Positions 2,290 to 19,590 of a DNA stretch of 26,854 bases are shown piece by piece (the stretch's first letter is position 1; each line of letters starts with the position of its first letter). The position numbers and the translations under genes are program-made. Source of the DNA: Candidatus Omnitrophota bacterium (GTDB lineage Bacteria > Omnitrophota > Gorgyraeia > Gygaellales > Profunditerraquicolaceae); contig JAMWCL010000017.1 in assembly GCA_023819035.1 (NCBI GenBank), forward strand, positions 1 to 26,854, given 5' to 3'. The notes beneath the pieces were generated by a model. That model was not told the origin of the DNA. It made no database searches and saw nothing but the letters and a program-made list of their open reading frames with translations.

Positions 2290-3585
2290 ATGAAAAGTAT
2301 AAATGTAGGATTGATTGGTTTGGGAAATGTAGGTTCCGGGGTCTTTAAGATCCTTGAAGATAAAAAAGGTCTATTAAGTAAGAAGATCGGTCTTAAGATA
2401 AATGTTAAGAAGATCTGCGATAAGGATATTGTTTCCAAAAGGAATGTTTCTGTAAATAAGGGGCTTTTGACTAAGGATGTTAAAGAGATTCTTAATGACC
2501 CTCAGATAGATATTGTGATAGAGTTAATTGGAGGAATCCATCCTGCTAAGGAATATATAATGGAGGCATTAAAGAATGGTAAACATGTAGTTACCGCAAA
2601 CAAAGCGCTTCTTGCCCAGGAAGGAAAAGAGATATTTGCCTATGCTTCAGAGCGGGCAAAAAACATCTACTTTGAGGCCTCCGTAGGTGCAGGTATCCCG
2701 ATCATAAAATCTTTACGCGAAGGTTTGGTGGCGAATAGATTTTATAGTATATTTGGTATTGTAAACGGCACTACCAATTATATACTCTCGGAGATGTCTT
2801 ATAATAATCTTACCTTTAACGAAGCCTTATCCCAGGCAATCAAAAAAGGATTCGCAGAAAAGGATCCCAGCTTAGATATCATGGGAATCGATTCTGCACA
2901 TAAATTGATACTTTTAGTTTATCTTTGTTTTGGAAGATTAGTAAGTCTTGATGAGGTATTTATTGAGGGTATATCAGAAATCTCATTATTAGATGTAAGT
3001 TATGCCAAGGAATTGGGGTTTGAGATAAAATTATTAGCCACCGCTAAGAAACAAAGGGATGAGTTAGAGTTACGGGTTCAGCCCACCCTTATACCTAAAC
3101 GACATCTTTTATCCTCGGTCGGGGGAGTGTGCAATGCAATATTTGTCTCTTCGGATTTAGCAGGTGATCTTTTATTCTACGGACCTGGAGCGGGACGGAT
3201 GTCCGCTGCTTCCGCGGTAGTTGCGGATCTAGTAGACTTAACCCAGGATATAAAAGCAGGTCTTTTTAAACCTATCTTAAATATCTTATCTGATACCTCT
3301 ATAAAAAGACTGCGGAAGATAGAGGATTCAATAAGTAGATACTATATTCGCTTTATGGCAAAGGATCAACCCGGTGTGTTGGCAAGGATCTCCGGGATAT
3401 TGGCTAAGAATAACATTAGTATTGCCTCAGTTACCCAAAAGGAAAGAAAGAAGGCCTCGGTTGTACCTATTGTAATGGTTATTCATGAGGCAAAGGAAAG
3501 AAGTTTACGTTTAGCCTTGGAGGCAATCGACCGTTTGGAGGTCATAAAACAAAAATCAATAGCCATAAGAATAGAAGAGCTATGA
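2290..3585 (+). CDS. hom: homoserine dehydrogenase
   Basis: N-terminal NAD(P) fold 'VGLIGLGNVGSGV', catalytic core, C-terminal ACT domain ('YYIRFMAKDQPGVLARISGILA'). 431 aa. Confidence 0.9.
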   Translation: MKSINVGLIGLGNVGSGVFKILEDKKGLLSKKIGLKINVKKICDKDIVSKRNVSVNKGLLTKDVKEILNDPQIDIVIELIGGIHPAKEYIMEALKNGKHVVTANKALLAQEGKEIFAYASERAKNIYFEASVGAGIPIIKSLREGLVANRFYSIFGIVNGTTNYILSEMSYNNLTFNEALSQAIKKGFAEKDPSLDIMGIDSAHKLILLVYLCFGRLVSLDEVFIEGISEISLLDVSYAKELGFEIKLLATAKKQRDELELRVQPTLIPKRHLLSSVGGVCNAIFVSSDLAGDLLFYGPGAGRMSAASAVVADLVDLTQDIKAGLFKPILNILSDTSIKRLRKIEDSISRYYIRFMAKDQPGVLARISGILAKNNISIASVTQKERKKASVVPIVMVIHEAKERSLRLALEAIDRLEVIKQKSIAIRIEEL

Positions 3586-9621: not shown

Positions 9622-11195
9622 GGAAGATGAAGATAGAATTATACGATACCACTTTAAGGGATGGCGCCCAGACCGAAGGGATTTCTTATTCGGTAAATGA
9701 TAAGATTAGAATAGCCAAAGCCTTGGATGACTTAGGAATAAATTATATCGAAGGTGGATGGCCGGGTGCAAATCCAAAGGATTCAGAATTCTTTAAAAAG
9801 ATGAAGAGGATTAAATTAAAGAATTCAGAACTCTGTGCTTTTGGAGCAACTAGACATCCAAAAAAGAAAGTATATTTAGATCCAAACATTAGAGGAATCT
9901 TAGATTCAGGTACAAAGATTGTAACGATCTTTGGAAAATCCTGGGACCTACATGTAAGAGAAGTATTGAAGGTATCTTTAGAGGAGAATCTAAAATTAAT
10001 TTCTGAAAGTATCTCATATTTGAGATCTAAAGGAAGAGATGTGATCTTTGATGCAGAGCATTTCTTTGATGGCTATAAAGAAAATCCTAATTATGCATTG
10101 AAGACACTATTAGTTGCACAAGATTCTGGTGCAAAGACAATTGTTCTCTGTGATACAAATGGAGGGACATTGACAAAAGATATTTCAAAGATAATCTTTG
10201 AGATTAAACCAAAGATAGAAGTTCAGTTAGGAATCCACACACATAACGATTTAGATTTAGCAGTTGCAAATACATTAGCGGCTGTTGGAGCAGGATGCAC
10301 CCATATTCAGGGAACATTCAATGGTTATGGTGAGAGGTGTGGGAATGCAGATTTATGTACATTAACTGGGATATTAAAATTGAAAATGGGAATCGACTGT
10401 ATATCTATGGATAAATTAAAAAAGTTGACCGAGATCTCTTACCTTATATCTGAGATTTCAAATATGAAGCATTCTGATAATCAGCCATTTGTGGGTAGAT
10501 CTGCTTTTGCCCATAAAGGTGGAGTCCATATCGATGCAATGATTAAAAACCCTAAGACCTATGAGCATATCGAACCCCAGTTAGTGGGAAACCAGAGAAG
10601 ATTCTTAATCTCTGAGCTTGCAGGTAGAAGCCCAATTGTAATTACTGCTAAGGAATTAAAATTAGAGATTGATAAGAAATCTAAAAAGGCAAAAAAAATC
10701 TTTAAGCTTTTGCAAGACTTAGAACATCAGGGCTATTCTTTTGAGGTAGCGGATGCCTCTTTTAAATTAATCTTACAGAAAGAATTAAAAAAATTTAAGA
10801 AATTCTTTGAATTAGAGGGATTTCGGGTAATTGTGGAGAAAAGAAAAGATGAGCGTGTCTTTGCTGAAGCAACCATAAGGCTTAAAGTAAAAGGGAAAGA
10901 ACAATATACCGCTGCGGAAGGAGCCGGTCCGGTAAATGCCCTGGATAATGCCCTCAGAAAGGCATTGATTCAATTCTACCCTCAATTGACAAAAATGCAT
11001 CTATCTGACTTTAAAGTCCGCGTATTAGATGAAAAAGCAGGGACTGCAGCTAAAGTAAGAGTCCTGATTCAATCCCAGGATGAAAAAGAATCCTGGGGAA
11101 CAGTAGGTGTTTCAGAAAATATCATTGAGGCCTCCTGGCAGGCATTGATTGATAGTATTGAATATAAGTTATTAAAAGACAAAATAAATGCTTGA
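9618..11195 (+). CDS. cimA: (R)-citramalate synthase / 2-isopropylmalate synthase family (CimA-like, with LeuA-dimer regulatory domain)
   Basis: '[18 protein letters not shown]' HMGL-like TIM barrel with 'HTHND', plus a C-terminal LeuA allosteric domain. 525 aa. The alternative start at 9627 (MKIELYD) has the better SD (GAGGAAG). Confidence 0.8.
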
Positions 11196-11688
11196 TTATC
11201 TGGGAATTTTTAAGGAGTTTAATACAAAGAAAATAAAATATATTGTTGTGGGCGGTTTAGCAGTGAATTTTCACGGAATTCCACGCGCAACTTATGATAT
11301 AGATTTGTTAGTTTATCTGGAAGACAGAAACTTAGCCAAGCTTTTGAGATTAATGAAAGATTGGGGCTTTAAACCAAAGGTTCCTGTAGATATTATGGAC
11401 TTTGCTGATAGAAATAAAAGAGAAGATTGGATTAAGAATAAAAATATGAAAGCATTTACTCTTATTAATCCAGAATGGGCAATAAAAGAGATTGATATTA
11501 TAATCAATTCTCCTGTGGATTATAAAAAAGCTCTAAAGAATGCTAAAATTTTTAAAATATATAATGTGCCCATTCCTACTATATCAATAAATGACCTTAT
11601 TCTAATGAAGGAAAAAACTGGTAGAAGACAAGATGAGGCAGATATTAGGTACCTTAAAAAATTATTAAAAAATGAGAAGAGCAATTAA
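11188..11688 (+). CDS. minimal nucleotidyltransferase-fold protein (Pol-beta superfamily, DUF2204-like)
   Basis: 'IVVGGLAVNFHGIPRATYDIDLLV' gives the hG[GS]...DxD nucleotidyltransferase signature. C-terminal 'LILMKEKTGRRQDEADIRYL'. 166 aa. Confidence 0.5.
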   Translation: MLDYLGIFKEFNTKKIKYIVVGGLAVNFHGIPRATYDIDLLVYLEDRNLAKLLRLMKDWGFKPKVPVDIMDFADRNKREDWIKNKNMKAFTLINPEWAIKEIDIIINSPVDYKKALKNAKIFKIYNVPIPTISINDLILMKEKTGRRQDEADIRYLKKLLKNEKSN

Positions 11689-11863
11689 AGGTTTTGATTA
11701 TTATCTGGATTCTAAAATCATCCGTGAATATCAAAAAATTCCTATAGAAAAAAGGCTTATTTGGTTATACCAGTTAAATCTTTTAAGAAAAGGATATCCC
11801 AAAAGGATAATTGAACTTCAGGATAAGTTTCGGGAAGGAAAGATTCAACAAAAAGGTGGCTGA
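11672..11863 (+). CDS. small hypothetical protein (63 aa), possible partner of the nucleotidyltransferase
   Basis: ORF overlapping the upstream gene end by 17 nt. No motif. Basic. Confidence 0.3.
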   Translation: MRRAIKGFDYYLDSKIIREYQKIPIEKRLIWLYQLNLLRKGYPKRIIELQDKFREGKIQQKGG

Positions 11864-12450: not shown

Positions 12451-14520
12451 ATGGAGCGTATCTTAGATATGCAATGCCCAAATTGTAGAGATAAAGATCT
12501 ATATCGTGTTTTAACAAGACAAGGCGTAGAGGTAGATTACTGTAAAGAATGTGGAGGCATCTGGTTAGATAAGGGTGAAATTTATTATTTTACCAAGACT
12601 CCTGCCTATCTCAAACATAATATCGAAGAAGCTTTAAAGAATCAAAGAATTTCAGAAAAAATTTCACCCAAAACAAAACAACCTTTGGTAAGTATAACTC
12701 TATTTGATACACTTATAGTTGAATTTTGCCCAAAGACAGGTGGTATCTGGCTTGATAAAGGAGAATTAGAAAAATTACCTAGCATTGAAAAGAAGTCTTT
12801 AGATATAACTTTGGATAAAAAAATTGAAATTGAGGAAAGAGTTGAGATAGATATTGAGGAAGAAAGAAAAAGAAAGGAGAGAATTTCTGCGATTGAAGCA
12901 AGGATCAGTCCTTTACCAAATTTGATTGTTGCCTCAACTGTAACTTTAGCTGGACTTTATGCCCTTTTAACACTTATCCTCATCTTATGTGTTCAGTTTT
13001 TAGGACTTTCACCATTTTTTGCTTTAATTATTGGAATCTTGGTTGTTCTTTTTCATTTCCTTTTTGGTCCTTTTCTATTGGATTTATCTTTAAGTTTGTT
13101 CTTCAAATTATCTTGGATTAGATCTGAACAATTACCTTTACACTTGAAGAATTTTATCGAACGTATCTGCAAAGAAAAAAATATGCGTTTTCCGCGTATG
13201 GGTTTAATTCGTGATGGTTCTCCTCAAGCTTTTACCTATGGTCATCATCCTAATAATGCTAGAGTCGTAATCTCTCAAGGTTTAATTAACCTTTTAGATG
13301 AAAGGGAAGCCGAAGCAGTAGTTGCTCACGAGCTTGGTCATGCTAAACATTGGGATATGTTAATAATGACTTTAGCTCAACTTGTTCCTCTGGTCTCATA
13401 CTATATCTATCGAACATTGATAAGGGTTAGAACGAGAGAAAGAGATAGAGGAGCAGGTGCTCGTTATTTAATTGCTATTGGCTCATACATTCTTTATATC
13501 ATCTCTGAATATTTGGTTCTTTGGTTTTCCCGTATTAGAGAGTATTTTGCTGATAGATTTTCTGGTGAAGTTACCCAAGATCCCAATGTTTTGGCTTCTG
13601 CTTTGGTTAAGATTGGCTATGGTTTAGCCGGACAGAAATTAAAGGTAGAAAAAGAAGAACGCAGGCCTCAATTAGAGGTTAGGTATTTTTGATCGAAAGA
13701 CTGCTCTTAATTTAGTGATTTCAGGCTTCTCACCCCAAACAATGGGAGGTGAGATAAACAAAGATTTATTAAAAGAAGCAATGAAATGGGATTTATGGAA
13801 TCCCTGGGCAATTTATTATGAATTACATTCTACACATCCTTTGATTGCTAAAAGGTTAAATAGGTTGAGTGAGCAATCTGTATTTTTAGGAAAAGAACCC
13901 TATATTATCTTTGACCGCAGAAGACCTGAATCCTATTGGGATGAATTTTTTATAGATTTACTTATTAAATTTTTACCTTTAATTGCTCTCGTTGGGGGAA
14001 TATTTCTATTCTCACCAATCATTAAAATCAGTTCCTTAAGATTCTTAGGAGCCTTAGGAATTTCTTTTGGCTTTGGTTATTTAATTAACATTTTATTTTC
14101 CTATAAGAAGGTGAACCGTTTCCTGAATTCAGTATCTCAGGTCTCTTAAAAAAGGTAAAAGTCTCTTCAGTTAGACCTGTTCCTTGCACTTTAAGAGGTA
14201 GAATCATTGGTCGAGGGATTCCCGGTTTAATCTGGTCAGAAGATTTTGTTCTAAAAGATGATACAGGAATAATCTTTTTAGATTATCGCCAACCCTTAGG
14301 GATCTGGGAGTTCTTCTTCGGACTTTTGCGGGCAAAAGAATTTATTAACGAAGATGTAATTATAACTGGCTGGTATCGTAGATCACCAGTCCCTTATATT
14401 GAACTTAAAACCTTAAGAGATTCTCAGGGAAGATTAATGAGCTGTTATGTTTATTTGGTAAAATTAACTGTAGCAATCGGCTTGATTATTTTAGGAGTAG
14501 CCTTTGTTTTGTTATCGTAA
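12451..14520 (+). pseudogene. M48-family (HtpX-like) membrane zinc metalloprotease with N-terminal tandem zinc-ribbon (zf-TFIIB-like 'CGGIWLDKGE') domains; split into three frames by two frameshifts
   Basis: Segment 1 (12451-13692): 'CPNCRD...CKECGGIWLDKGE' twice, TM helices, 'HELGHAKHWD' HExxH, 'REYFADRF' third ligand. Segment 2 (frame 2, open from 13676; 13715-14149): 'ELHSTHPLIAKRLNRL' M48 C-terminal motif plus TM helices. Segment 3 (frame 1, open from 14107 to 14520). The frames overlap only over 13676-13689 (T5 run at 13686-13690) and 14107-14146. Confidence 0.6.
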
Positions 14521-14584
14521 TTTTAGTGAGTAAAAAATTTCTGATTAAGACTAAGATTATATTAAAGGACAATAAAATCTTGTT

Positions 14585-15063
14585 ATGCTTGTTTTTCTTT
14601 GGTTTATTACTGGATTTCTGATATATTTTTTTATCTTTAAATTAAATTTTTTTGAGGCAGTTAAGGCGAGTTTCTTTTTCAAAAGAATAGTCATTTAGGC
14701 CAACGCTTAATAAAATATTTTAAAGAAAGAGGAATTTCTTACTGTTTAATAGAAAAAGATAAAGGGAAGATAGATGAGCTATTATGTGAAGGTGAGCCAA
14801 TCGTTGTTGATGATGCTAAGGAACTAGATGCCTTAAAAGATGCAAATGTTAGTAATGCAAAGATAGTTATTATCGCCTCTAATAATTTAGAGACTGCTTT
14901 GATTGCAACTAAAAGAACGCGGGATCTCAACAAAAATTGTCAGATCATAACAAGATGTTTTCAGGATGAATTTGCTGAGATTGTTGAATCCTTAGGAGCA
15001 AATGAAGTGATTTCAAGTTCCAAGAATGCTTTTGAAGATATAGTTGGGAAATTTAAATTATGA
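14585..15063 (+). pseudogene. degenerate TM-helix + RCK_N (TrkA-N) domain gene, frameshifted with degraded Gly-rich motif
   Basis: A 37-codon ORF 'MLVFLWFITGFLIYFFIFKLNFFEAVKASFFFKRIVI*' ends at 14698. In another frame (open from 14665): 'LGQRLIKYFKERGISYCLIEKD...GEPIVVDDAKELDALKDANVSNAKIVIIASNNLETALIATKRTRDLNKNCQIITR...' matches TrkA_N after the GxGxxG loop. The junction sits at the T3 run 14693-14695. Confidence 0.5.
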
Positions 15064-15078
15064 AAAAGGAGGTGGAAG

Positions 15079-15977
15079 ATGTATATGGGGTTTATCTTTG
15101 GATTTCTTTTGGTTATTTCAGGTTTGGCCTTTATTCTCACAAAGATGCGTCATCCGGACTACAATAAGACAACCAATCTTATTGGGTTGATCCTTATAAT
15201 AATTGCAATTCCAATAATAGTTTTTAGTTTTATCAGGATAGTACCTGCAGGAACTGTAGGGGTAGTTGACCTCTTTGGTAGGGTATCTGATATTGAAAGA
15301 CATCAGGACTAAATTTAGTAAATCCTTTTGCCAGATTAATTATTATGAATATTAAAACCGAAGAGATAAAGGAGACGATGGTTGTGCCTTCAAAAGAAGG
15401 CTTATCAGTAAGTTTGGATGTCTCAATATTGTATAGACTTGCACCTGAATTGGCAAGTGATATTTATAAAAGAGTTGGGGAAGGATATCGAGAGATTGCT
15501 ATCGTTCCCCAATTTCGCTCTGTATGTAGAGGTGTAACAGTCAATTATGAGGCAAAGGCTTTGTATACTTCTAGTCGTGAAGAGATTGCTTTAAAGATCT
15601 TTACTGATTTAGAAGCGATGCTTAAAGAGCGGGGTATTATTTTGGAAAGGGTGCTTTTAAGAGCGATCACTTTGCCTCCCACTGTATCGCAAGCAATTGA
15701 ACAGAAATTGAAGGCAGAGCAAGAGGCTGAACAGATGAAGTTTATTTTGGAAAAAGAGAAGAAAGAGGCGGAAAGAAAGATAATTGAGGCAGAAGGTATT
15801 GCTAAGGCACAGGAGATAATTGCTCAGAGGTTAACTGACAGGTATTTGACTTGGCGTTTTATGGAAAAGATTGAAGCCTTTGGGAAAGGTCAAAATAATT
15901 CGATTATATTATTACCTTATGACCAAAAGATACTTCCCTTAATTCAAGTTCCCGGTGAAAGAGAAGAAAAGAAATAA
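15079..15977 (+). pseudogene. SPFH/band-7 (prohibitin/HflC/QmcA-like) membrane protein, interrupted by a single frameshift
   Basis: 15079-15312 encodes a TM helix plus 'IVPAGTVGVVDLFGRVSD'. A frame open from 15297 encodes 'SGLNLVNPFARLIIMNIKTEEIKETMVVPSKEGLSVSLDVSILYRL...' (SPFH core) and a coiled-coil tail. One extra A in the run at 15296-15298 would fuse them into a protein of about 290 aa. Confidence 0.7.
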
Positions 15978-16118
15978 GAGATATGAATATTATGATATAA
16001 TAATTACCAAAGAAGGAGATATTCTCATACAACCTTATGGCAAGCTTCTAAATTCTCTGATTAAGAGGTTTGGACTTTCTGAAATAAATCTCAAGATAAG
16101 TAGATTCTGTGGATAAAT

Positions 16119-17687
16119 ATGGGAAATTTTAAATCTCAATGCGAGAAAGAGATTGACCTCTTAATTCGGGCAAGATACCCTTTGCTCTATATAGTTAGCT
16201 ATGAGGAAGAGAGGGTTTCAAACCTCTTATCTAAATTGGCGAATGAGAGGAATAAACAATTCTTTATTTGGACTACTACTTGTGGAATACATAAATTCGA
16301 GGAATTAAGTAGACCTGAGCAGCCTTTAAAAGTAGATGAGCAGACAAGAGATCCTCTAAATATCTTAAATCATATTGAGAGGCAACCCTATCCCGCCATA
16401 TTTTTATTAAAAGACTTTCATCCCTTTTTATCCGACCATACTGTCGTAAGAAAACTGCGTGATTTAGTTGAGAATCTAAAGCAGACCTATGAGACGATTG
16501 TAATCTTGTCTCCAATTTTAAATGTTCCGGTTGAATTGGAGAAAGACATAGTAGTAGTTGACTTTGAATTACCAAATAAAGAAGATTTAAATCAACTTTT
16601 AAATGAAATCATTGAAGTAGTAAGTAAATCTGGAGAGGTCAAGATTAATCTTGATTCAGAAACAAGAGAAAAACTGATCTCTGCTGCTTTAGGTCTTACT
16701 TTAACTGAAGCAGAGAATGCTTTTGCTCGGAGTATCGTTGTAGATAAATCCTTGGGTCCTGAAGATGTTGAGAAGATTTTAGCGGAAAAAGAGCAGGTAA
16801 TTAGAAAATCTGGAATCTTAGAGTATTATCATCCAGCTGAAAAATTGGAAGATATTGGAGGTCTAAATTCTCTTAAAGACTGGCTCATTAAGCGTTCAGT
16901 TGGTTTTACTGAAAAGGCAAAGGAATTTGGTCTTCCTGAGCCAAAGGGAATATTATTGATTGGGGTTCAGGGTTGTGGAAAGAGTTTAACTGCAAAAGCA
17001 ATCTCTTCATTCTGGAAATTGCCTTTATTAAGATTTGATGTAGGAAGGGTTTTCTCTGGAATTGTTGGTTCATCAGAAGAGAATATGCGCAAAGCAATAA
17101 GGATTGCTGAATCCGTAGCACCTGTAATCTTATGGATCGATGAGATAGAAAAGTCTTTATCTGGAGTTCAGAGTTCAGGTTTCTCCGATGCGGGAACTTC
17201 TGCCAGAGTATTCTCTACATTTTTAACCTGGCTTCAGGAGAAGAAGAAACCTGTATTTGTGGTCTCTACAGCAAATAATATCTCGCTTTTGCCTCCTGAA
17301 CTCTTGAGAAAGGGAAGATTTGATGAGATATTCTTTGTGGACTTACCGAATTTTGAAGAGAGAAAAGAGATCTTCTCTATCCATCTTAAAAAGAGAAAAA
17401 GAGACCCTAAAAATTATGATTTAGAAATTTTGGCAAGAGAATCTGAGGGCTATTCAGGTGCAGAGATTGAACAGGCAGTAATCTCTGCTCTATTTGATGC
17501 CTTTGTGGAGAAAAGAGATATTAATACTGAAGATATATTAAGAAATCTCAAAAGCAGTATTCCTCTCTCTCAGACAATGAGAGAAGATATCCAAGCTTTA
17601 AGAGATTGGGCAAGGACACGTGCAAGACCAGCAAGCCTCCCAGAAAAAGAAGTCTTGAGAACTAAAGAGAGAAAGATAGAATTGTAA
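16119..17687 (+). CDS. AAA+ ATPase, Ycf46-like (N-terminal domain + AAA module with unusual P-loop 'GVQGCGKS')
   Basis: Walker A 'GILLIGVQGCGKSLTAKA', Walker B 'VILWIDEIEK', arginine finger region 'GRFDEIFFVDLP'. The 'LPLLRFDVGRVFSGIVGSSEENMR' block is remembered as characteristic of Ycf46-family ATPases. 522 aa. Confidence 0.8.
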   Translation: MGNFKSQCEKEIDLLIRARYPLLYIVSYEEERVSNLLSKLANERNKQFFIWTTTCGIHKFEELSRPEQPLKVDEQTRDPLNILNHIERQPYPAIFLLKDFHPFLSDHTVVRKLRDLVENLKQTYETIVILSPILNVPVELEKDIVVVDFELPNKEDLNQLLNEIIEVVSKSGEVKINLDSETREKLISAALGLTLTEAENAFARSIVVDKSLGPEDVEKILAEKEQVIRKSGILEYYHPAEKLEDIGGLNSLKDWLIKRSVGFTEKAKEFGLPEPKGILLIGVQGCGKSLTAKAISSFWKLPLLRFDVGRVFSGIVGSSEENMRKAIRIAESVAPVILWIDEIEKSLSGVQSSGFSDAGTSARVFSTFLTWLQEKKKPVFVVSTANNISLLPPELLRKGRFDEIFFVDLPNFEERKEIFSIHLKKRKRDPKNYDLEILARESEGYSGAEIEQAVISALFDAFVEKRDINTEDILRNLKSSIPLSQTMREDIQALRDWARTRARPASLPEKEVLRTKERKIEL

Positions 17688-18388
17688 TGAAGAAAAGACG
17701 ATTCCAGAGATTAGAACTTTCTTCTTTACTCAGTGTATTTAAAAGACCAAAGATAGAATTGAAGCGATTTGAAAAGTTAGAGGTTGATGGCCATAAGATT
17801 GAGATAAAGATAACTGAAGAGAAAAGAAAATATAAAGCATGTCCAAAATGTCAGAGGAATAATCCAAAAGATAGTTTATACTGTCTATATTGCAATTATA
17901 TATTTGAGGATATTGCTGAGGAAGTCAAAGGAGTAGAGTTAGAACCTTGGCAGATAAAATGTCCTGGTTGCGGAAAAATTAGACCTCGGACAGAAAAATA
18001 TTGTCTTTACTGTGGCTGGAGGATTTCTCCTTTAAGTGAGGAGGAAACAAAAATCTCTCCTGAGTTTTTAAGAGAGAAGACTGGACAGAGATTATTAAGT
18101 CAAGGTGAGGTGATTAATTTAACCATTGATGGAAAGACTTATCGTTCAACAGATAAGAATATCCCTCCAGATATAAAAGAACTGATGCTAAAGATAAAAG
18201 AAGAAGGTTATTCAAAAGAGATGATTGATGAATGGGTAAAGAAAAAGAATATTGAGAAAGAATTAAAAAGAAGAGATTTAGAAGAGAGGATATATGAATT
18301 GAGATGGCAGGTCTTCTGGAGAGCATTAGGATTTATTGGTTTAATTTTGTTTTTGATATTTTATATTTGGTTGAGGGTAAGATTTTAG
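17687..18388 (+). CDS. double zinc-ribbon protein with C-terminal transmembrane anchor
   Basis: 'CPKCQRNNPKDSLYCLYCNY' and 'CPGCGKIRPRTEKYCLYCGW' (two CxxC-x11-CxxC ribbons). C-terminal 'ALGFIGLILFLIFYIWL' helix. Start overlaps the ATPase stop (TAATGA). 233 aa. Confidence 0.65.
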   Translation: MKKRRFQRLELSSLLSVFKRPKIELKRFEKLEVDGHKIEIKITEEKRKYKACPKCQRNNPKDSLYCLYCNYIFEDIAEEVKGVELEPWQIKCPGCGKIRPRTEKYCLYCGWRISPLSEEETKISPEFLREKTGQRLLSQGEVINLTIDGKTYRSTDKNIPPDIKELMLKIKEEGYSKEMIDEWVKKKNIEKELKRRDLEERIYELRWQVFWRALGFIGLILFLIFYIWLRVRF

Positions 18389-18400
18389 CCGGAGGAGGTT

Positions 18401-18790
18401 ATGTCTTCAACTGGAGGCATTGAATTGATTATCAGGAGTTTAGCTTCTTTACTCCAAGCAATTGGTGATTTAAGATTAGCTTGTGAAGAGAAGAAAGAGA
18501 TGCAGACTACAGATGGAAAGATTTATAATGTAGATGTGGTAGTTAAAGATGAGAATAATCGTTCAATTGGTTTTCAGAAGCAGAAGGATGGGAGTTATAG
18601 GATTATTGCTGATTCTTATGGACTTAATTCTGCACAACTAAAGAAACAGCAGGAATTTATCAACAAAATAAAAAGACGCTATGCTTATAATATGGTGATT
18701 GACCAATTAAAGAAACAGGGATATCAGATTTCTGAAGAGAAAATAGAGAAAGATACCATAAAATTAATTGGCCGCAGATGGGTTGCCTAA
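18401..18790 (+). CDS. DUF1257-like small protein
   Basis: 'MSSTGGIELIIRSLASLLQAIGDLRLACEE...' resembles the MS-x5-I-x3-L-x2-L-x2-AL-x-DL N-terminus recalled for DUF1257. SD GGAGGAGG. 129 aa. Confidence 0.55.
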   Translation: MSSTGGIELIIRSLASLLQAIGDLRLACEEKKEMQTTDGKIYNVDVVVKDENNRSIGFQKQKDGSYRIIADSYGLNSAQLKKQQEFINKIKRRYAYNMVIDQLKKQGYQISEEKIEKDTIKLIGRRWVA

Positions 18791-18834
18791 TCTTTGGAGC
18801 TGAGACCTCCGAATATATTGTAAAGTAAGGAGTT

Positions 18835-19038
18835 ATGGCAAGAAAAGAAGAGATTGAGATCTTAATCTCTGAAGATGGTTTTATAAAATTTCATATTAAA
18901 GGAATAAAGGGTCCAAAGTGCTTGGATTTGGCTAAAGTAGTAGGAAAGCCTTTAGGAGAGTTAAAAGATGTTAATTTAACTTCAGAATATTATGAAAAAG
19001 AAATAATAAAAGAGAAAGCTAAACAAAAAATTAAATAA
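18835..19038 (+). CDS. DUF2997-like small protein
   Basis: 'ISEDGFIKFHIKGIKGPKCLDLAKVVGKPLGELKDVNLTSEYY' matches the G-x-x-C...LG...T-x-EYY pattern recalled for DUF2997. SD AAGGAG. 67 aa. Confidence 0.55.
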   Translation: MARKEEIEILISEDGFIKFHIKGIKGPKCLDLAKVVGKPLGELKDVNLTSEYYEKEIIKEKAKQKIK

Positions 19039-19065
19039 AAAGGAAAGCCCAAAATCTCTTTAATT

Positions 19066-19105
19066 GCACAAAATAAGCATTGCTTAAAATGTGCAGATGG
19101 TTTTT
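19066..19105 (+). terminator. candidate intrinsic terminator after the AAA/DUF operon
   Basis: Nested inverted repeat GCACA(19066-19070)...AAGCA-T-TGCTT(19075-19085)...TGTGC(19090-19094), followed by a T5 run (19101-19105). Imperfect stem. Confidence 0.3.
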
Positions 19106-19232
19106 AAAATTTTCTCCGGTAGAAAAATTGAGAATAGCAAAGAGAGCAGAAAAATTTCTAAAAGTACTACAAAATGCAAAATAAACCCATTTTAGAAAAA
19201 GAGTTCCTCTTCTTTAAATTAATGCATAAGAA

Positions 19233-19295
19233 ATGAGTAATTTTAAATCTCAATGTGAATTTGAATATGAACATAAAAAAGAAATCTTTATTTAG
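19233..19295 (+). repeat. duplicated 5' fragment of the AAA ATPase gene (remnant ORF MSNFKSQCEFEYEHKKEIFI*)
   Basis: 'ATGAGTAATTTTAAATCTCAATGTGAA' versus the gene start at 16119 'ATGGGAAATTTTAAATCTCAATGCGAG'. An identical 17-mer AATTTTAAATCTCAATG. The peptide MSNFKSQCE matches MGNFKSQCE. Confidence 0.5.
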
Positions 19296-19467
19296 AAAAA
19301 TTAAAGAATTTAGTATTAAGTCTATTAAAAGATGAGCCACTTAAGGTCTTTTTCTTTGGTTCTCGAGCAAGGAAAGACTGCATATTCAATCTGATGTGGA
19401 TATAGGATTATTCCCTATGGAAAGATTAGATTTAAGATTTAAAGACTTTGGAAGAGATATTAAATAA
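19277..19467 (+). pseudogene. MNT-type nucleotidyltransferase (HEPN/MNT toxin-antitoxin family) remnant, start lost and frameshifted
   Basis: Frame a gives '...LKDEPLKVFFFGSRARKDCIFN' (stop at 19403). The next frame gives 'SDVDIGLFPMERLDLRFKDFGRDIK*' (stop 19465-19467). Together they form the LFGSxARG...SDxDIxx signature, but there is no start codon. Confidence 0.5.
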
Positions 19468-19590
19468 ACCATTTAGGCGGAATGAGACTTTGTATACGTA
19501 TCGGGAAGAAGTCGCACAAAAAATCTATGATGCTATTAAAAATTATTACTCTTTGATGGAGAGAATCCTCAATAAATTTAAAGATAAGTT

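Follow-up and report, generated by a model that had tools for sequence, protein, structure and literature searches.

Bacterial genomes are reportedly subject to a deletional bias, and pseudogenes in bacteria are said to arise by frameshift and deletion under the same bias. Genes are reportedly also split by insertion or deletion (indel) errors in metagenome and long-read assemblies, for which length-ratio tests of the 'ideel' type are said to exist. Here, a contig of 26,854 nucleotides (nt) without N, analysed whole and referred to below as the window, was studied from an NCBI metagenome-assembled genome (MAG) of a Candidatus Omnitrophica/Omnitrophota bacterium (locus tag NC912), the source population being an order Gygaellales-like Omnitrophota of hot-spring sediment. 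Three neighbouring genes on the plus strand, encoding an M48 family membrane protease, a protein of the RCK (TrkA_N) family and a protein of the SPFH/prohibitin family, are each split across reading frames in three-frame translation. The feature is of a well-known kind and, judged from comparison with intact relatives, probably represents genuine and very recent pseudogenisation of the three genes by deletion.

Split genes in the deposited record

The original prediction that each gene can be read through only by a change of frame was borne out by three-frame translation and by truncated Pfam models. Matches were obtained to two Zn_ribbon_TFIIB domains plus Peptidase_M48, to TrkA_N and to Band_7, with every domain model cut exactly at a junction. 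Spacing between the genes is 5 nt (M48 to RCK) and 15 nt (RCK to SPFH), and the three are probably carried on one transcript. The frame breaks belong to the deposited record, because the fragments exist as separate proteins of the Prokaryotic Genome Annotation Pipeline (PGAP): a 413-amino acid (aa) 'M48 family metalloprotease' (MCM8801175), a 210-aa 'prohibitin family protein' (MCM8801179) and 'hypothetical' fragments of 144 aa (MCM8801176), 64 aa (MCM8801177) and 77 aa (MCM8801178). The RCK remnant was apparently left without PGAP annotation, since the locus tags on its two sides, 04090 and 04095, are consecutive. The foremost practical consequence is that three genes are stored in databases as five fragment 'proteins' plus one apparently unannotated remnant, and metabolic or comparative analyses using MAG NC912 would miscount M48, RCK and SPFH genes.

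Intact relatives of the M48 gene were found in genomes (at most 55% identical), in Joint Genome Institute (JGI) metagenomes (contigs L011 and L012, at 73%) and in a protein collection (P0248/L044 and P0249/L045 at 77–78%, together with L039, which is UBA2593, GCA_002340085.1). The nearest relatives are 73–84% identical in protein and approximately 75% in DNA. Homologues are uninterrupted single open reading frames (ORFs) in more than 1,300 cases for M48, more than 100 for RCK and more than 2,600 for SPFH, with lengths of 660–715 aa, approximately 234 aa and approximately 295–300 aa, respectively. Comparison with the orthologous loci, a check proposed in the original prediction, found the relatives intact and allowed the deletions to be sized and placed by alignment. 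The genes and their lesions are as follows.

12451 to 14520, plus strand: disrupted membrane protease (M48) gene, approximately 690 aa, in frames 1/2/1
13677 to 13678, plus strand: junction of an 11-nt deletion in M48, from DNA alignments with L011, L012 and L039 and from protein alignment of 24 homologues
14105 to 14112, plus strand: zone of a 1-nt deletion in M48 (TATAAGA-AGGTGAA), frame 2 to frame 1
14526 to 15063, plus strand: remnant of a gene of the two-transmembrane-helix (2-TM) plus TrkA_N (RCK) family, GTG start, frames 0/2/1, TrkA_N model matched from 8 to 115 of 116
14592 to 14596, plus strand: T5 run with a 1-nt deletion in RCK, alignment gap at 14593/94, frame 0 to frame 2
14682 to 14690 (approximately 14684–14690), plus strand: junction of a 163-nt deletion in RCK, a 163-nt gap relative to L012 and L039, frame 2 to frame 1
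15079 to 15977, plus strand: disrupted SPFH/prohibitin-family gene, approximately 299 aa, in frames 1/0, Band_7 model matched from 23 to 175 of 176
15297 to 15305, plus strand: 1-nt deletion in SPFH, best fit codon CAA to CA at 15301–15303

Frame-changing deletions

Where four frameshifts had been predicted, five frame-changing lesions (11, 1, 1, 163 and 1 nt) were found, the change from frame 0 to frame 2 in the T5 run of the RCK gene having been missed. All are deletions relative to the intact relatives, none occurs in any relative examined, and in each case the old frame meets a stop within the next 4–13 codons. One junction had been thought to need removal of a base and others an addition; the apparent removal proved to be the 11-nt deletion. 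The five lesions lie within 1,624 nt (13678–15302) of the 26,854-nt contig, a clustering with P of approximately 6e-5 under uniform placement and approximately 0.006 when restricted to an 8.4-kb variable interval described below. The localisation originally predicted was thereby upheld, together with the intactness of approximately 23 kb of flanking genes (hom, thrC, coaB, apgM, cstA, lysC, cimA, an AAA ATPase gene, valS, nadC, uvrB, coaX and PilZ genes), which are whole as judged by full-length domain coverage and by lengths as in orthologues of related contigs. The association with homopolymers was not sustained: T5 at 14592–14596 is the only run of at least 5 nt to contain a lesion, and two of the five lesions are the 11- and 163-nt deletions. 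Sixteen other runs of at least 5 nt in the tract are undamaged (including T7 twice, A6 twice and T6), and 191 such runs outside the three genes are undisturbed. The lesions thus neither favour the longest runs nor scatter across the contig, as homopolymer-driven errors would. A search for flanking repeats hinting at misassembly or a mobile element gave short chance-level matches only.

The M48 gene is read in frame 1 (12451–13689), frame 2 (13676–14146) and again frame 1 (14107–14517), and encodes two TFIIB-type zinc ribbons, TM helices, an HtpX-like M48 domain with HELGH and further TM helices, followed at the C-terminus by an oligonucleotide/oligosaccharide-binding (OB) fold and a TM anchor. 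At the first lesion the relatives read GAAG, CAATTGGAGCC and TTAGG, whilst in the window GAGG is joined directly to TTAGG; the missing 11 nt change frame 1 to frame 2 and take out the A-[IV]-G-A motif before LGIFD that is kept in all 23 aligned homologues. The T5 run at 13686–13690, earlier proposed as the lesion, occurs in frame in the intact relatives too, and the true lesion is the 11-nt deletion at 13677/78. The second lesion is best placed at approximately 14108–14110 (AAGA-AGG) and is equally readable as 2 additional nt relative to the one-codon-shorter loop of L039 and L044. As it stands, the gene is predicted to be truncated past the catalytic domain; cells could still produce a 413-aa fragment of the protease that includes HExxH, the EYFAD glutamate and the two zinc ribbons. 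A mosaic or recombinant origin of the out-of-frame segment was ruled out, the ranking of relatives being identical in all three segments. A link between M48 and SPFH of the NfeD-SPFH (STOPP-stomatin) kind was also ruled out, as the C-terminal OB fold of M48 is not NfeD-like.

A terminator-like hairpin at 13664–13680 (GGCCTC-AATTA-GAGGTT, then AGGTATTTTT, 13664–13690), spanning the junction, is created by the 11-nt deletion and is absent from the intact relatives. It may be a coincidence, or may be tied to the origin of the deletion or to premature termination of transcription. Promoter and terminator scans gave counts no higher than in shuffled sequence.

In the RCK gene, frame 0 runs from the GTG at 14526 to 14618, frame 2 from 14576 to 14695 and frame 1 from 14665 to 15060. 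The larger of its two lesions is a 163-nt deletion: family position 56 is the last in the frame-2 segment and 111 the first in the frame-1 segment. The lost positions 57–110 comprise TM2, the linker and, from the Rossmann fold, beta-strand 1 (IVIVGY). The gene is accordingly read as dead from its sequence, because one TM helix and the first strand of the nucleotide-binding fold are gone. This deletion replaces the T3 run given earlier at 14693–14695 as the lesion; that run actually lies at 14694–14696 and is conserved in intact relatives. The 'RIVI' and 'NSHLG' readings share the same bases at the junction, and this overlap suggests a microhomology of 4–5 nt (AATA/GAATA).

The SPFH gene is read in frame 1 from 15079 to 15309 and in frame 0 from 15297 to 15974. 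Its gap was placed by DNA alignment with contig L038, the closest match in DNA (AGAC-ATCAGGA versus CGTCAAGCAGGA), and the repaired protein reads SDIERQSGLN, a motif common in the family, with gap-free alignment to 10 homologues. The A3 run at 15296–15298, which had been put forward earlier, is a less likely lesion site on this alignment than CAA to CA at 15301–15303. The predicted protein is split between its membrane anchor and the SPFH domain.

Several further observations concern SPFH. The gene of L038 (Logan SRR7799234), 84% identical in protein, is also split, and was considered as corroboration and set aside, its shifts being independent, elsewhere and uninformative. The two L038 frameshifts, at 735–793 and 1236–1246, are both +1, in A6 of cimA (A5 in the window) and T6 of SPFH, and probably reflect errors in the reads or assembly of SRR7799234. 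The last approximately 50 residues of SPFH (LTDRYLTWRFMEKIEAFGKGQNNSIILLPYDQKILPLIQ; 15820–15974 in the window, 1790–1932 in L038) differ from 114 homologues at 14 highly conserved positions, and because all 14 deviations are common to the window and L038 the tail is read as a clade-specific replacement. A 53-aa ORF (VKEKKRNKRYEYYDIIITKEGDILIQ...) at 15955–16116 on the plus strand overlaps the SPFH stop by 23 nt and had no match in Pfam or NCBIfam. Its counterparts, at approximately 51–53% by tblastx, lie directly 5' of the AAA ATPase gene in L011 (6912–7019) and directly 5' of M48 in L012 (273–383), and the ORF may be an unannotated small gene or leader peptide.

Sequence constraint

No nonsense codons were found in the original frames of M48, RCK and SPFH. 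Of 128 columns without variation among 21 outgroup sequences, repaired M48 retains 127, the lone exception being common to the intact sister, and at columns conserved to at least 90% it deviates 8 times, compared with 15 for L011 and 17 for L012. A Tajima-type relative-rate test, with P0248 as sister and P0250 as outgroup, gave 49 window-specific versus 48 sister-specific changes; in the segments 3' of the first lesion the counts were 20 versus 21, with no excess. M48 identity to relatives is equal in in-frame and out-of-frame segments. RCK deviates at one of 47 highly conserved columns, equal to the median of its family, and SPFH at none of the highly conserved columns in its first 248 residues; the rates of both are typical of their families. 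By estimate, the power of the constraint test is such that roughly 14 or more neutral substitutions would be noticed.

Genomic context

The ancestral gene order, as in L044 and L039, is thrC-coaB-apgM-cstA-lysC-cimA-(two zinc-ribbon genes)-M48-(MNT-HEPN pair)-RCK-TolB-like ... valS-nadC. Other relatives have M48-RCK-TolB-like-valS (L012), AAA-DZR-DUF1257-M48-valS (L011) and cimA-SPFH-valS (L038). From these arrangements M48 and RCK are taken to be vertically inherited neighbours in the clade, with the content of the cimA-valS interval varying, and the accessory region offered as an alternative in the original prediction was supported to this extent. Because the interval is variable in gene content among relatives, M48, RCK and SPFH can be dispensed with in some lineages. 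SPFH in other Omnitrophota follows ftsH-folP-dacA-pdxJ-acpS, and the neighbours of RCK vary too; the copy in the window is at a non-canonical locus, in the cimA-valS interval and not after ftsH-folP-dacA-pdxJ-acpS-nnrD. The proposal that a whole functional block was affected was therefore not supported beyond the recurrence of M48-RCK adjacency.

The remainder of the interval contains additional small modules. Genes at 16119–19038 on the plus strand form a conserved four-gene module encoding a 522-aa AAA ATPase, a protein with a double zinc ribbon and a TM helix at the C-terminus, DUF1257 and DUF2997, which presumably resembles the Ycf46/Ycf35-type gene association. The same AAA/zinc-ribbon/DUF module is found 5' of M48 in L011; in L004 the AAA gene comes after M48. 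A defence-island reading was rejected, with only weak IetA/IteA-like matches in PADLOC and NCBIfam for the AAA ATPase. At 11188–11863 on the plus strand, a gene for a DUF6036/AbiEii-like nucleotidyltransferase of 166 aa overlaps a 63-aa ORF by 17 nt in a toxin-antitoxin-like layout, and a different nucleotidyltransferase-HEPN pair lies between M48 and RCK in L039, L044 and L045; small modules of this toxin-antitoxin-like kind appear, from the gene orders, to be swapped in and out of the interval. The approximately 550 nt of AT-rich non-coding DNA 5' of valS (19039–19590) contained no relic of M48, TolB-like or other genes of the relatives and no Rfam match. Outside the interval, a tRNA-Pro(GGG) gene at 1829–1906 on the plus strand, the only match in Rfam and tRNA scans of the window, overlaps the 5' end of a listed 149-aa PilZ ORF (1836–2285). 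The PilZ domain begins at residue 37 and the true start codon is therefore downstream of the tRNA.

Interpretation of the deletions

As in pseudogenes, intact homologues exist, the lesions block a full-length product, and indispensable elements of RCK and M48 are lost. A spectrum that includes 11- and 163-nt events at mostly non-homopolymer sites favours spontaneous bacterial deletion over base-calling error, and the confinement of the lesions to three consecutive genes fits neutral hits that persist only where selection on the DNA has ceased. We infer that the deletions are present in the cells and not merely in the assembly. On this reading, selection on M48, RCK and SPFH would have been lost recently in the sampled population, and deletion-biased mutation would then have struck each of the three neighbouring genes.

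Several observations weigh against pseudogenisation. The relaxed constraint expected of a pseudogene was not detected in any of the three genes, and the ongoing decay earlier proposed likewise left no such signal beside the deletions. A typical indel-to-substitution ratio is approximately 0.1–0.2, so that five deletions should be accompanied by 25–50 substitutions, several of them at conserved sites or making stops. With no substitution-level decay, the lesions must be very recent in an indel-rich lineage, or produced together, or not real. M48, RCK and SPFH are not a conserved unit, and their near-simultaneous loss therefore needs an extra assumption. No same-species genome was found in the searched collections: the eight window proteins tested were all singleton clusters at 90% identity, and exact look-ups of the window AAA and prohibitin proteins returned no contig on record. 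A literature search on Omnitrophota pseudogenes found nothing relevant.

The best surviving alternative, though a doubtful one, is a local assembly artefact, in which the genes are truly intact and bases were lost from the consensus of a poorly covered or strain-variable 1.6-kb tract, for example when gaps between graph tips were closed on short spurious overlaps, or when the path ran through rare erroneous or variant k-mers. Its strongest argument, which again counts against pseudogenisation, is that the coding sequence is fully constrained apart from the deletions, even 3' of the first lesion. In addition, all lesions have the same sign, being missing bases as collapsed joins would give; the tract (13678–15302) begins and ends inside genes, ignoring gene and operon borders; and the variability of the interval among relatives favours uneven coverage. 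Set against this, no junction has the overlap of at least 10 nt needed for a spurious tip join, the maximum being the 4–5 nt of microhomology at the 163-nt junction; the window is without N; the rest of the variable interval (11.2–13.6 and 15.4–19.6 kb) is clean; and the long homopolymers of the tract are intact. The sequencing platform also bears on this question, as the rate of indel error on Illumina instruments is very low. Two other 'Candidatus Omnitrophica bacterium' MAGs, GCA_023819445.1 and GCA_023819285.1, with locus tags NC918 and NC925 and proteins MCM8830664 and MCM8819202, are neighbours of NC912 with its MCM88011xx proteins. Both are listed in Supplementary Table 1 of a study of geothermal-spring MAGs, BioProject PRJNA807920 (Seymour et al. 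2023; PMC10066038), for which the pipeline was Illumina HiSeq 4000 2x150 sequencing, metaSPAdes assembly with k of 33–111 and MetaBAT2 binning (PMC10066038). These numbers strongly suggest that MAG NC912 belongs to the PRJNA807920 batch. If the platform was indeed Illumina/metaSPAdes, as is likely, 11-nt, 163-nt and non-homopolymer 1-nt deletions are implausible as read errors. Reads probably covered the deletion junctions too, because a de Bruijn contig consists of k-mers that occur in reads. N-run scaffold gaps do occur in sister MAGs and are a further point in favour of an artefact. In GCA_023819285.1 (contig L049, same project) pdxJ is split into coding sequences of 162 and 74 aa by a 10-N gap at 3323–3332, whilst pdxJ is intact in the near-identical MAG L048; assemblies of this project therefore contain low-coverage breaks that yield split-gene annotations.

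A sub-case in which the lesions are real, a single mutational burst, is improbable. Here one error-prone break-repair episode would have left all five deletions in 1.6 kb, by combining -1 frameshifts of the polymerase IV type with slippage or microhomology-mediated end joining. Such an event would explain the joint death of three unrelated neighbours without substitution-level decay. It would be consistent with five deletions in 1.6 kb lacking detectable accompanying substitutions, with the occurrence of -1 events outside long runs beside deletions of 11 and 163 nt (AATA microhomology being possible for the 163-nt one), and with a tract that ignores gene borders. There is, however, no direct evidence for it, and power to exclude approximately 10–15 neutral substitutions is low with the nearest relatives only approximately 75% identical in DNA. 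Stepwise neutral deletions in an indel-rich lineage would look alike, and experimental bursts near induced breaks are reported mainly as substitutions or single -1 events. Recoding or switching, whether by programmed ribosomal frameshifting, transcriptional slippage or phase-variable contingency genes, to which one lesion in T5 and the L038 shifts in homopolymers (T6 of SPFH, A6 of cimA) might point, can be dismissed on several grounds. All homologues are single ORFs with no conserved shift site, and two of the 'shifts' are deletions that take away either conserved residues or 54 codons. A slippery heptamer accompanied by a conserved stimulator is lacking, and no tract reaches 8 nt; the largest at any lesion is T5, against the 7–8 nt or more, or the multiple repeat units, typical of phase-variable loci. 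The L038 shifts lie elsewhere and look like independent errors or mutations.

Recent pseudogenisation of the three genes thus remains the probable reading. Were the deletions true, they would record the loss of three genes (for a membrane protease, an RCK protein and an SPFH scaffold) from the variable cimA-valS interval of a hot-spring Omnitrophota lineage, a small datum on streamlining in ultra-small bacteria. Their indel-only spectrum would also be of mild interest to studies of mutation spectra.

Comparison with known systems

M48, RCK and SPFH each belong to a large and well-conserved Omnitrophota/Desulfobacterota family, and their Pfam content matches that of the HtpX/M48, SPFH (HflK/C, QmcA, prohibitin) and RCK/TrkA_N families. 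Unlike HtpX, HflK and TrkA themselves, they fall in uncharacterised subfamilies under NCBIfam cut-offs: M48 here has a pair of zinc ribbons at its N-terminus and an OB fold at its C-terminus, RCK is short, with 2 TM helices and no channel pore that could be recognised, and SPFH has its clade-specific tail. The locus resembles programmed frameshifting (prfB, dnaX, IS3-family) and phase-variable loci in that a frame change is needed and one short T run is present, but the shift is not conserved, slippery or stimulatory signals and a long repeat are lacking, and conserved sequence is physically gone. As with assembly indel errors, genes are split into adjacent coding sequences, bases are missing and not added, and the fragments are otherwise perfectly conserved; such errors concentrate in long homopolymers and scatter contig-wide, however, and the lesions of the window do neither. 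With bacterial pseudogenes the locus shares intact homologues in relatives, small and medium deletions as the only lesions, loss of an essential RCK element and the involvement of a few adjacent genes in a variable interval. It differs from typical bacterial pseudogenes in showing no relaxed constraint, nonsense mutations or rate acceleration, and in that the three genes hit are not obviously interdependent.

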